DNA from: Planctomycetota bacterium
GTDB lineage: Bacteria > Planctomycetota > B15-G4 > SIAN01
Direction: 5' to 3'
Length of the DNA stretch: 64,000 nt
Assembly (NCBI GenBank): GCA_031409275.1
Contig: JANNXA010000055.1
Location: forward strand, 466,024 to 530,023
Position numbers and translations under genes: made by a program. Shown piece by piece: positions 22,688 to 32,279 of the stretch. Every line of letters starts with the position of its first letter. Position 1 is the first letter of the stretch. The notes below the pieces were generated by a model. It worked only from the letters and a program-made list of their open reading frames with translations. It was not told where the DNA came from and did no database searches.

Positions 22688-23518
22688 ATGCGACTGCTCA
22701 CCCTCTGCACCGCTCTGATCGCACCCTTCGGCTTCGCCGCCGCGACCCCGCGGGCGGCCAACGAGCGCGCCCCGTCGGCCGGCTTCGAAGGACGGCTCGA
22801 AGCCTCGCAGAACGTCCTGGTCGGCAGCTCGGGCGAGGGGCTGCTGCACGAACTGCGCGTCGAACTCGGCGACGTGGTGGAAGCGGGTGCCGAGATCGCC
22901 TGCCTCGATCCACGCCCGCAGCAGCTTCAGGTCGAGCTGGCGGCCGCCCGTGCTTCGCGCACCGCGGGCAACCAACGCGCCCACGCGGCGGTCGCGGAAC
23001 TGGATCGTCAGCTCGCGCAACGCGCGGCGCTGTTCCAGGATGGCCTGATCGCTGGAAGCGAGAAGGAAGAGCTGCTCGCGAAGCGCCGCCAGGCCGAGAT
23101 CGACCTGCTTGAAACAGAGGAGACGCTGGCGCTCGATCGTCTGGAGCACCGCCGAGCGCTCCTCGACCTCGACGCCACGCGGATTCGCGCGCCGATCCGC
23201 GGCGTGGTGGCCGAGCGCTGCCACTTCGTCGGTGAGTACATCAGCCGCGGCGATCCCGGAATCGTGCGATTGCTGGCGCTCGATCCGCTGATCGTCGAGG
23301 TCGCCTTGCCGGTGCAGATGCTGGGTGCCGTGACCGTCGGCGATCGCGCCACGCTGTCGTTGGAGCACGCCCCCGAAACGCTGCTCGAAGCGACCGTGAA
23401 GGTCGTCGAGCGACAGGTCGACACGGCGAGTTCGACCTTCGTCGTGCGCCTCGAACTGCGAAATGAGGGCGAGCGGATTCCCGCCGGACTCCGCTGCCAG
23501 GTCCGTTTCGCGAAGTGA
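22688..23518 (+). CDS. Membrane fusion protein / RND-HlyD periplasmic adaptor
   Basis: Signal peptide, biotinyl-lipoyl halves (VELGDVVEAG; IRAPIRGVV), coiled coil, VDTASSTFVVR..PAG. Confidence 0.9.
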   Translation: MRLLTLCTALIAPFGFAAATPRAANERAPSAGFEGRLEASQNVLVGSSGEGLLHELRVELGDVVEAGAEIACLDPRPQQLQVELAAARASRTAGNQRAHAAVAELDRQLAQRAALFQDGLIAGSEKEELLAKRRQAEIDLLETEETLALDRLEHRRALLDLDATRIRAPIRGVVAERCHFVGEYISRGDPGIVRLLALDPLIVEVALPVQMLGAVTVGDRATLSLEHAPETLLEATVKVVERQVDTASSTFVVRLELRNEGERIPAGLRCQVRFAK

Positions 23519-30099: not shown

Positions 30100-32279
30100 G
30101 CGCGACGGCTTCACCGCCCCCGCAGACCACTCCCGCTGCCGCGGTCGCTCCTGCGGCGCCGTCGCTGGCTCAGCGGCTGCGCGAAGTCCAGGTCGGGGCG
30201 CGCCGCGATCTCGAAGTGACGCGCCACGTCTTCCGTGGCGAAGTGGCCTACGTGCTGCGCGACCCGCTGACTCTCGCTCACCATCGCGTCGGCCCGTCCG
30301 AGTACGCGATCATCGTGGCCCTCGACGAGACGCGCACGCTCGGGGCGATCTTCGAGGAGTTGGTCCAGCGCGGAGTGGTCGCCCACGACGAGGAGGAGAA
30401 CTACTACCGGCTGGTCTACTCGATGCATCGCCTCGGATTCCTGGCGCTTCCGTTGAACGACGAGAAGACGCTGTTTCGCCGAGCCGAGCAGCAGCGCGCG
30501 GCGCATGCGAAGCGCTTCCGGATGGCGTTCCTCTCGCTGCAGATCCCGCTCTGGAATCCCGATCGCTTCCTGCAGCGCACGCTCCCTTGGGTGCGACTCG
30601 CCTTCACCCCCATCGGCGTCGCGATCTGGCTGGCGACGGTCCTGCTCGGCGGGTACGTCGTCGCCGCGAACTTCCATGACTTCACGGCACCGATCGTCGA
30701 CCTGCTCGACGGCCGCGACCTGCCGATGCTGTGGGCGACCTTGATCGGACTGAAGCTGTTCCACGAGTTCGGCCACGCGTACGCCTGCAGAGGCTTCGGC
30801 GGGCTGGTGCCCAAGATGGGCATCAACCTGATGATGCTCACGCCGACGGCCTACGTCGACGCCACCAGCAGCTGGTCCTTCACCCTGCGCTGGCAGCGCA
30901 TCGTCGTCTGCCTGGCCGGGATGATCGTCGAGCTCTTCGTCGCCGCGCTGGCGGTCTTCGTCTGGGCGATGACCCCTCCGGGCGCGCTCCATTCGCTCGC
31001 GCATGGCATCGTGGTGATGGCGAGCGCGGTGACGCTGGCCTTCAACCTCAATCCATTCCTGCGCTACGACGGCTATCACGCGCTGTGCGACGTGCTCGAG
31101 CTCCCGAACCTGCGCGCCCACGCCGAGAGCTACACGCTCTCCCTGGTCCGACGCGTGCTGCTGGGCATGCCGATCGAACGGGCGCCGAAGCAGCGACGCC
31201 TGCGCTGGCTCTTCGTCTTCTTCGCGCTGGGCTCCGCCGGAAGCCAGCTCGCGCTGATGACGGGCGTCTGCCTCGCGATCGCCCACAAGTACTACGCGCT
31301 CGGCGTGCTGCTGGGCGTCGGTTACCTCGCCTCCCGCATCGTCAAACTGATCCGTAGCGCGATCGGTGGCCTCGTCCGCTCGGCCACGACGCCGGCGCTG
31401 CGCACGCGCGCGATCGCCATCGCCGTCGGAATGCTCGGGGTTGTGCCGATCGCGCTGCTAAGTCTGCCCATGCCGCCGCGCGTGCTGGTCACGGGCGTCA
31501 CCGGACGCCTCGCCGAAGCCACCGTCAGCGCGAGCAGCGACGGCTTCCTCGAAGCGATCGTCGCCCCTGCTGGCACCCACGTCGAAGCGGGAGCTCCGGT
31601 AGTGCGACTCGTCGATCCCGTCGCGGACGGCGCCGTCGCCACGGCGCAGGCGCGCCTGGTTCAGGCGCAGTTGCGAGAACGGGGACTTGCGCCGCTCGAT
31701 CCCGCGGCCGCTGCGGCTGCGCATGAACAGTCGCTGCAGGCGCAAGCCGCGCTCGACCACGCGTTGCGCCAGCAGCAGGATCGGCTCGTCGTCGCCCCCC
31801 GGACGGGGACGCTGCTTGCCGTACCGTCTTCCGGCGAGCGCGGCCGTTTCGTGCAACGCGGTGAGGCACTCGGACGGATCGTCGACGGCGAGCTGTGCGT
31901 GCGTGCCTTGTTGAGCCAGGAGGAGTGGGCCCGTTGCAGCCCATCGGTGGGCGATCGCGTCGAGTTCCGCTCGACGGCACAGGCGGGTCGCGTGCGGCAC
32001 GGCACCATCGAGCACATCGTCCCGATGGGGCTTCACGCCCTCGACCCCGACCTCGCGGCGCTCGCGGAGATCGCGGGTGGCGACATCGCCATCGATCCGC
32101 GCACGAACGAAGCGAGTCGCGCCCACTTCCAGCTCGTGGCGCGCCTCGATGAGGACGACGCGGCGGCGGCGCTCGGGGTCACGGGAGTGCTGCGCCTGTC
32201 AGCGCCAGCGACGCCGTTGCGGCACGAAGCGTGGCGGCGGCTCGTGCTCTTCGGTCAGCGCCTGCGCGAAGGCGGCTGA
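30096..32279 (+). CDS. PqqD/RRE-like domain + M50 site-2 metalloprotease + HlyD adaptor fusion
   Basis: YVLRDPLT..IIVALDETRTLGAI N-terminus, HEFGH, NLNPFLRYDGY, C-terminal lipoyl/coiled-coil MFP half. Confidence 0.88.
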   Translation: MSATASPPPQTTPAAAVAPAAPSLAQRLREVQVGARRDLEVTRHVFRGEVAYVLRDPLTLAHHRVGPSEYAIIVALDETRTLGAIFEELVQRGVVAHDEEENYYRLVYSMHRLGFLALPLNDEKTLFRRAEQQRAAHAKRFRMAFLSLQIPLWNPDRFLQRTLPWVRLAFTPIGVAIWLATVLLGGYVVAANFHDFTAPIVDLLDGRDLPMLWATLIGLKLFHEFGHAYACRGFGGLVPKMGINLMMLTPTAYVDATSSWSFTLRWQRIVVCLAGMIVELFVAALAVFVWAMTPPGALHSLAHGIVVMASAVTLAFNLNPFLRYDGYHALCDVLELPNLRAHAESYTLSLVRRVLLGMPIERAPKQRRLRWLFVFFALGSAGSQLALMTGVCLAIAHKYYALGVLLGVGYLASRIVKLIRSAIGGLVRSATTPALRTRAIAIAVGMLGVVPIALLSLPMPPRVLVTGVTGRLAEATVSASSDGFLEAIVAPAGTHVEAGAPVVRLVDPVADGAVATAQARLVQAQLRERGLAPLDPAAAAAAHEQSLQAQAALDHALRQQQDRLVVAPRTGTLLAVPSSGERGRFVQRGEALGRIVDGELCVRALLSQEEWARCSPSVGDRVEFRSTAQAGRVRHGTIEHIVPMGLHALDPDLAALAEIAGGDIAIDPRTNEASRAHFQLVARLDEDDAAAALGVTGVLRLSAPATPLRHEAWRRLVLFGQRLREGG

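Follow-up and report, generated by a model that had tools for sequence, protein, structure and literature searches.

We analysed a five-gene cluster at positions 22688-32279 of a 64,000-nucleotide stretch of Planctomycetota bacterium DNA (assembly GCA_031409275.1, contig JANNXA010000055.1; the whole stretch is referred to as the window) and found it to be an intact member of a published gene cassette known from computation, in a form that lacks the motor proposed for that cassette. Its open reading frames (ORFs), all on the + strand (22688-23518, 23515-27714, 27764-28216, 28213-30099 and 30096-32279), encode a stand-alone periplasmic adaptor (membrane fusion protein, MFP), an RTX/PKD protein, a PilZ protein and two fusions that bring an MFP domain together with GAF domains in one case and, in the other, with an M50 protease and a RiPP recognition element (RRE; RiPP, a peptide made on the ribosome and modified after translation). 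Together, the five genes likely form a protein exporter without an ATP motor of its own. The cassette addresses the question of how LEPR-XLL-tagged proteins, which reach 36,806 amino acids, leave the cell. In the published proposal, this gene set depends on a SecA-type ATPase; since the window variant is without one and the copy in six relatives is catalytically degenerate, the question of energy is sharpened.

The protease fusion is predicted to bind the cargo leader

The last gene (30096-32279) encodes a 727-residue fusion of an RRE, a site-2 protease (M50) and an MFP domain, which matched PF02163 at the cut-off and yielded an AlphaFold model with a predicted local distance difference test (pLDDT) score of 92.7; alignments of 80 and 70 sequences were used for this protein and for the GAF fusion, respectively. 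In the model, residues 31-118 (30186-30449) adopt the PqqD-like RRE fold, with strands 40-46, 49-55 and 62-65 followed by helices 67-75, 82-92 and 97-112, and superimpose on the lasso B1 structure 6JX3 (Z 10.3, root-mean-square deviation (rmsd) 2.9, 84 residues aligned) and on 5V1U (Z 9.7, rmsd 3.0, 83 aligned). At the sequence level, PF05402 matched 19 of 50 relatives of the fusion and not the window copy, and the RRE alignment, searched against PDB sequences, reached PqqD (3G2B) at E 0.037, weaker than designed-protein noise. The matches listed by Foldseek for the whole model were MFPs only. The membrane domain carries an HExxH motif (residues 223-227) and the third zinc ligand, D325, within NxxPxxxxDG (together 30762-31070), as in a site-2 protease, and H223, E224, H227, N317, P320 and D325 are invariant in 80 of 80 sequences. 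Its fold matches RseP (7W6Z; Z 10.4, rmsd 3.0, 131 aligned) and SpoIVFB (8VJL; Z 10.1, rmsd 4.3, 134 aligned), and among NCBIfam models the protease part scores best with NF041824 (daptide protease), whose cut-off of 300 bits lies above the 157 bits obtained.

A complex of residues 19-460 of the fusion with zinc and a 46-residue leader from the RTX/PKD protein was predicted alongside three controls. The complex scored 0.65, 0.66 and 0.65 against 0.09 for the best control, with a pass mark that 116 of 157 solved pairs and 2 of 215 mismatched pairs reach; the runs had at least 87% of contacts in common and a partner pLDDT of at least 54. An expected error of 1.4-2.3 Å applies to the pairing of leader residues 53-59 with residues 53-54, 61-69 and 95-113 of the RRE, and the best-defined contacts fall on strand 3 and helix 3, the elements that make up the leader-binding cleft of RREs. 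Since the interface also takes in K220, H223, E224 and H227 together with residues 244-260 and 312-341, the leader reaches the active site in the model. The cargo leader is thus predicted to lie in the RRE cleft and to run on into the zinc site; this lends support to leader binding, short of demonstrating it, and names residues for mutation.

The cargo carries its leader and RTX repeats near the N terminus

The predicted cargo (23515-27714) has 1,399 residues, in which Pfam and related analyses delineate the leader, an RTX block, a PKD domain, three 75-residue repeats, a second RTX block, a cadherin-like domain, two PKD domains and an acidic, proline-rich tail. It contains a single cysteine, and its hydropathy shows neither a transmembrane segment nor a hydrophobic signal. 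A preliminary description of this DNA had called it a giant adhesin; at its actual length it is no giant, and 'adhesin' is a label taken from the domain content, of which the RTX and PKD domains are confirmed.

The LExRxLL (LEPR-XLL-type) leader motif occupies residues 53-71 (23671-23727), of which residues 53-68 read FEVESLENRVLLSATW. The LEPR-XLL model NF012209 scored 16.1 bits on the protein, against a cut-off of 17, and 20 bits in the genome search; the motif is also seen in the leader alignment, where L, E, R and S are invariant in 18 of 18 sequences and PilZ-type leaders continue with SATWxD, and in the complex prediction. A leader profile of our own, built with the window sequence included, matched only the cargo ORF in the genome (next best E 0.33). 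One leader-bearing protein and one full-length M50-HlyD protein were found in the genome, in which the cargo is also the sole RTX protein found. Directly behind the leader lies the first calcium-binding RTX block (23767-24288, bounds approximate; PF00353, GGxGxD motifs at residues 107-252), and RTX-like repeats follow the leader in several relatives as well. Overall, the RTX repeats occupy residues ~85-258 and 733-846 of 1,399, with none in the last 550 residues.

No dedicated ATP motor is found

No ABC, RND or TolC gene is present among the five cluster genes, in agreement with the preliminary description. Whole-genome negatives are read against a genome completeness of 92.9%. In profile searches of the genome, HlyB, PrtD, LssB and HlyD gave nothing above cut-off; the best ABC scores of the HlyB, PrtD and LssB types were 372, 232 and 331 bits against cut-offs of 726, 510 and 693, so that no ABC component of a classical type I system was found. 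We also surveyed the best 80 of 125 related loci, many of them on contigs too short to cover the 10-kb flanks. Nine of the 80 loci contain ABC-ATPase ORFs, and one ORF tested per locus gave best matches to LolD, FtsE, GldA/DrrA, PmtA or MsbA types, with no HlyB/PrtD/LssB-type family above cut-off among those tested. Homologous loci therefore do not consistently carry a PrtD/HlyB transporter, the outcome that the preliminary description had named as fatal to its proposed exporter. RND pumps were absent from the recurring clusters listed for the related loci, where no profile search was aimed at them.

A secondary SecA_DEAD protein was likewise not found in the locus or genome, which yielded a single SecA (1,098-residue frame) to PF07517 and to a profile including degenerate copies; PF07517 is itself capable of detecting such copies. 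The preliminary description had placed the cluster beside SecA_DEAD-linked clusters noted bioinformatically, and these are indeed published as a computational description, but it overlooked that the window copy is missing the SecA_DEAD gene. A long canonical SecA is the only one among the matches listed for 22 of 31 PilZ-type genomes, including a genome assembled almost as a single contig; the listing leaves out 26 matches weaker than 2e-14. In the single-contig genome G204, too, the listed matches include only a long canonical SecA. In the phylum sample together with genome G055, a search at E 1e-41, which missed one degenerate copy (in G217), found a second SecA absent from seven PilZ-type genomes, one of them apparently shared with the first set, and present in four.

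In six related cassettes the SecA paralogue has lost both the Walker A and the DEAD motif while the protease site is intact, and these cassettes fall in three places on the M50 tree. ATP hydrolysis by the cassette SecA would then be non-essential, and the paralogue is, judging from these sequences, probably not an essential motor. The pseudo-ATPase paralogues lie at L061:12069-14003, L064:12099-14144, L066:12113-14050, L076:11937-14003, L100:1103-3067 and L115:11130-13109 (locus handle and positions). Separately, a Pseudosulfitobacter plasmid record (L130:15014-17038) annotates as 'prepilin peptidase' a 674-residue protein that has SecA Walker A and DEAD motifs.

PilZ and SecA mark two forms of the cassette

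Among the 80 surveyed loci, a PilZ gene lies just 5' of the GAF-MFP gene in 31 and a SecA gene follows the M50 gene in 31, with no locus containing both. In 114 locus rows, some of them duplicates, SecA or DUF3467 appears in 0 of 39 PilZ rows and PilZ in 0 of 21 DUF3467 rows. Homologues of the M50 fusion itself also lie in SecA-bearing cassettes. In a FastTree phylogeny of 106 M50 proteins (4 duplicate rows excluded), all 38 PilZ-labelled proteins fall in one clade (support 0.925) that has no SecA-linked member, so the mutual exclusion of PilZ and SecA reflects one event and not many. The sister of this clade, L120, has DUF3467 and a LEPR-type cargo, with no secondary SecA found in its genome, a hint that the loss of SecA preceded the arrival of PilZ. 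As DUF3467 usually directly precedes the GAF-MFP gene, PilZ occupies the DUF3467 slot and not the SecA slot. DUF3467 was not found in the window form; no search was made for SapC.

The window PilZ protein (27764-28216; PF07238), whose gene more likely starts at ATG 27797, where the proteins of relatives begin, carries RxxxR (27893-27907) and DxSxxG (27989-28006), the RxxxR and D/NxSxxG motifs of cyclic di-GMP (c-di-GMP) binding, and R44, R48, D76, S78 and G81 are invariant in 33 of 33 sequences. The genome has eight GGDEF matches. Four sister loci, which form the sister clade of the motif-intact group, retain a PilZ-slot gene without the c-di-GMP motifs, which suggests a structural role as well. 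These small genes (L051:2009-2443, L052:1999-2433, L111 within the 12052-13377 frame, and L114:6675-7073) keep the N-terminal helix and barrel pattern. A c-di-GMP control layer is plausible from the motifs, though not universal across the clade; most likely, the PilZ protein is a small cytoplasmic adaptor in the DUF3467 slot that makes export c-di-GMP-dependent in most of the clade. In locus L125, a ParA-like ATPase gene (by sequence motif only) stands between PilZ and a GAF-MFP gene with a long acidic N-terminal extension (10272-11054 and 11014-13587).

Across 201 genomes of the phylum, 28 have both an NF012209 match and M50-HlyD, 3 the leader only, 28 the protease only and 142 neither; M50-HlyD is thus present in 28 of 31 genomes with NF012209 against 28 of 170 without, an association inflated by kinship among the genomes. 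One of the three leader-only genomes, G053, was rejected as an artefact, its match sitting 683 residues inside a frame that runs antisense to another ORF. By M50 type, the leader occurs in 25 of 31 genomes with the closest type and in 3 of 25 with divergent M50-HlyD subfamilies. Five loci of a divergent subfamily (L112, L113, L117, L118 and L123), several from single-contig genomes, have a GAF-MFP of about 460 residues, and no secondary SecA, PilZ or LEPR cargo was seen nearby. The M50-HlyD core, present in 56 of the 201 genomes, also occurs on plasmids of cultured Alphaproteobacteria. Pseudosulfitobacter sp. DSM 107133, Mesorhizobium ciceri R30 and Methylobacterium extorquens AM1 are among the cultured, non-pathogenic bacteria with the SecA type. 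PF07595 (Planc_extracel) gave 4 matches in the 201 genomes with at most 41 candidates scored per genome, a count uninformative about the wider planctomycete leader family.

Three adaptors could form a duct to TolC

The stand-alone MFP (22688-23518; 276 residues) scored 105 bits with TIGR01730 against a cut-off of 94.9 and has a hydrophobic N terminus, likely a Sec signal, and a long alpha-hairpin. Its family bears at the hairpin tip the R/L/S motif through which MFPs contact TolC, with the three residues present in 66, 75 and 80% of 65 aligned sequences. The GAF fusion (28213-30099; 628 residues; model pLDDT 92.1) consists of two GAF domains, a transmembrane segment and an MFP domain with a short hairpin; residues 15-173 match 4G3K (Z 15.7, rmsd 3.3, 151 aligned), residues 186-341 match 3EEA (Z 13.1, rmsd 3.1, 138 aligned) and residues 385-606 of the MFP part match 4TKO (Z 15.5, rmsd 3.0, 213 aligned). 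Both fused adaptors have short hairpins without the motif, which among the adaptor families only the free MFP keeps; from these sequences the free MFP is likely the TolC-contacting subunit, and the fused adaptors would form the base. The HlyD-type MFP model TIGR01843 gave 33 bits for the window protein P0001 and 59.5 bits for the best protein of the genome, against a cut-off of 208.65.

Nine OEP ORFs lie elsewhere in the genome and none in the locus. Of 8 cassette-linked TolCs tested, 7 find their best match in one of these ORFs, an orphan TolC gene at C22:17564-19186 with no MFP match beside it. This gene (also L109:7565-9187) sits among housekeeping-type genes and is kept in all five relatives searched. 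A TolC dedicated to the cassette was rejected, because the C22 gene is also present in same-genus genomes without the cassette; it would be shared.

A leader-directed exporter and its alternatives

We propose, with somewhat better than even confidence, that the cluster is a dedicated leader-directed exporter of the RTX/PKD protein. The RRE is predicted to grip the N-terminal LExRxLL leader of the cargo and would hand it over to the intact site-2 protease for cleavage, which the model puts within residues 61-70. An inner-membrane pore would be formed by the membrane helices of both fused adaptors, and the cargo would cross the envelope N terminus first, by way of a duct built from all three adaptor types and a TolC encoded elsewhere, with the free MFP docking on the shared orphan TolC at C22. 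Pull from calcium-driven folding of the first RTX block, acting as a ratchet, would replace the ATPase, helped by the ribosome or the proton gradient. The preliminary description had already suggested a non-canonical exporter with M50 and a hetero-oligomeric MFP channel in place of the ABC unit; this is supported in part by the missing ABC unit, the invariant catalytic residues and the predicted leader binding, although the idea of M50 as a pore was published in 2015. A bolder version, which we advance only tentatively, makes the machine a separate one-step secretion class, in which a RiPP-style leader reader and an intramembrane protease would act as the inner-membrane translocase and pass large proteins N terminus first, in mirror image to type I secretion and with no NTPase, while SecA paralogue, DUF3467 and PilZ would be interchangeable cytoplasmic accessories. 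If so, the machine would be the missing route of LEPR-XLL export, for a group that includes the largest proteins known from bacteria. The window holds a small, clonable version of the system, of five genes and with a cargo of 1,399 residues, and LEPR-XLL export becomes testable through the leader model and through an ATPase that is either degenerate or absent.

Several observations weigh against the proposed exporter. No M50 domain is known to us to let a 1,400-residue chain through. The solved RRE-leader and site-2 protease-substrate complexes (6JX3, 5V1U and 8VJL) may drive the pass of the complex prediction, and self-made alignments and zinc fall outside the calibration of the prediction tool. 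Half of the M50-positive genomes (28 of 56) have no NF012209 match. In the window MFP the TolC-contact motif is degenerate (Q111, L115 and A122), TolC lies near only 3 of 39 PilZ-type loci, and the C22 TolC gene also occurs in 4 of 4 same-genus genomes in which no full-length M50-HlyD was found. Genome completeness of 92.9% limits the absence of a second SecA, and 9 of 31 PilZ-type genomes carry one elsewhere, 6 in separate M50 cassettes and 3 alone, possibly acting in trans. Finally, for the M50 protein EpeP, the available text of PMC10885120 reports that EpeX production survives its deletion.

The energy might instead come from the housekeeping SecA. It could power the same machine in trans, or export could proceed in two steps, in which the leader is cut, the cargo crosses SecYEG and the adaptors carry it from the periplasm to TolC. 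The sister form speaks for this, with its SecA paralogue right behind M50 in 31 of 80 loci and its motifs mostly intact, as do canonical SecA matches in 49 of 49 and 60 of 60 genomes searched and a 2026 preprint that reports a periplasmic waiting stage for the LEPRxLL giants of Chlorobium chlorochromatii. The cargo, however, lacks a hydrophobic signal or transmembrane segment, and two adaptors fused to inner-membrane helices and cytoplasmic domains fit a continuous duct. Moreover, the M50 residues specific to the SecA type (S22, W25, Y26, W51, W86, P98 and Q100) cluster in the N-terminal/RRE region and are largely retained beside pseudo-SecA but not in the PilZ type, a pattern that stems from one clade split and is not independent. 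We consider this explanation unlikely, though the most serious of the rivals. Less probable again is a c-di-GMP-gated module for processing, retention or release after the manner of LapD/LapG, which gate release or retention through c-di-GMP, with the cargo leaving by another transporter. Such an alternative route might be offered by an ABC exporter with an adjoining MFP at C1:23-27 kb, a point that also counts against the proposed exporter; the invariant PilZ motifs (33 of 33), the eight GGDEF matches and a conserved amphipathic helix at the cargo ends of relatives, which could act as an anchor, fit the same picture. It fits poorly with the retention of three adaptor domains in the cassette across phyla, with TolC genes adjoining 15 of 39 SecA-type loci, with no type I secretion family exceeding its cut-off, and with PilZ being present in no SecA-type locus and having lost its motifs in four loci. 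A small RiPP-type peptide or a regulator as the substrate of the RRE-M50 protein, with the large gene an incidental neighbour, we regard as very improbable: the large gene overlaps the MFP gene and lies inside the cluster in many loci, the leader accompanies the closest M50 type (25 of 31 genomes), and the predicted complex formed with the cargo's own leader, points that stand against the daptide-protease match (157 bits) and the rarity of NF012209 alongside divergent M50-HlyD subfamilies (3 of 25 genomes).

Locus structure and further features

The five co-oriented genes and their three four-base overlaps (GTGA at 23515-23518, TTGA at 28213-28216 and ATGA at 30096-30099) are as the preliminary description gave them; GTG and TTG are the inferred start codons of two of the overlapping genes. 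Its domain make-up was borne out by Pfam and TIGR family scans (MFP; RTX, PKD and cadherin-like; PilZ; HlyD_3; Peptidase_M50 and HlyD_3) and by the predicted structures, which reveal the GAF and RRE domains that Pfam did not detect in the window proteins. A divergent 3-keto-disaccharide hydrolase gene flanks the cluster on one side and a convergent ychF on the other, and a scan for promoters and terminators gave no signal above chance. Positions 26739-32487 show zero differences from contigs of two public runs of one freshwater-sediment study, possibly the source samples, and the closest relatives likewise place the host among the planctomycetes. Elsewhere in the window, 19332-20942 (- strand) encodes a 536-residue protein with weak alpha/beta-hydrolase (PGAP1-like) matches and a C-terminal part without assignment.

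Within the cargo gene, 24906-25563 holds 2.9 tandem copies of a 225-bp (75-residue) repeat with 94% matches, weakly ALTTAQ-like (PF20080 below cut-off); no single run contig bridges the array, so its copy number is provisional. Near the C terminus, a short, weakly amphipathic segment (27595-27636) stands at the position of the LWGxxR helix conserved in 18 related cargo ends, to which it bears a resemblance only. A conserved C-terminal cleavage or anchor motif in the window cargo was rejected, as a profile from 22 hand-picked relatives gave it no score and produced a false match on a spurious frame. At the C termini of PilZ-type cargos (L008-L037, L103 and L126), an acidic linker is followed by an amphipathic FFAxLWGLVRG-like helix and then by a charged tail, and SecA-type cargos often finish with a Gly/Ala-rich helix closing with GW(K/R). 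Such conserved C termini could possibly serve as an anchor or second signal.

Comparison with known systems

The layout is like that of a type I exporter, yet the locus lacks several marks of type I membership. Classical type I systems (HlyB-HlyD-TolC and PrtDEF; LapBCE is a further example) have in common with it an RTX cargo, periplasmic adaptors and, likely, a TolC channel; the window differs in having no ABC transporter and an MFP of RND rather than HlyD type. Both the signal and the repeats of type I substrates are C-terminal, according to the available text of PMC5018854, whereas the window cargo has an N-terminal leader and N-terminal and central RTX repeats. Alg44 of alginate synthase serves polysaccharide polymerisation and has its PilZ domain fused, whereas PilZ stands alone in the window.

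The RRE N-terminal to an intramembrane M50 protease and the short conserved leader motif are shared with MpaP and EpeP. Daptide clusters were discovered through RREs fused to site-2 proteases, their leader motif is ELExMEAP, and leader removal is ascribed to MpaP in the portion available of 10.1101/2023.03.08.531785; EpeP is believed to cleave and export its peptide (PMC10885120, available text). The window protein adds an MFP domain, falls below the NF041824 cut-off and has as its predicted substrate a 1,399-residue surface-type protein instead of a short peptide. With the LEPR-XLL (NF012209) giants, the window cargo has the N-terminal LExRxLL in common, although it is far smaller and its model score marginal. 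The 2026 preprint describes the giants Cag_663/Cag_665 of C. chlorochromatii as without known transport signals and, alongside sapC and tolC, mentions a secA acquired recently in connection with these CaD3 proteins; the species is also in list S13 of Kamneva, Poudel and Ward (2015; PMC4452313), and its giants may use the SecA-type cassette.

The closest relative is the conserved locus of that 2015 study, whose main text describes GAF-HlyD and M50-HlyD together with an MFP and a SecA_DEAD protein of reduced length, and no ABC transporter; SecA is proposed as the ATPase and M50 as the pore, TolC is sometimes absent, and further clusters include SapC and a hypothetical protein. PilZ, PqqD, leader, RTX and giant go unmentioned in that main text, and its cluster table is without PilZ. 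A literature search, with subscription papers mostly outside its reach, found neither the PilZ type nor a leader-RRE link described. The window shares with the 2015 locus the three adaptor-bearing proteins (M50-HlyD, GAF-HlyD and MFP) and the missing ABC transporter, and differs from it in the PilZ gene, with no secondary SecA and no DUF3467 found. While the outline of the cassette was already known, the predicted leader-RRE-zinc complex, the degenerate SecA paralogues and the PilZ gene in the DUF3467 slot are what the present analysis adds.

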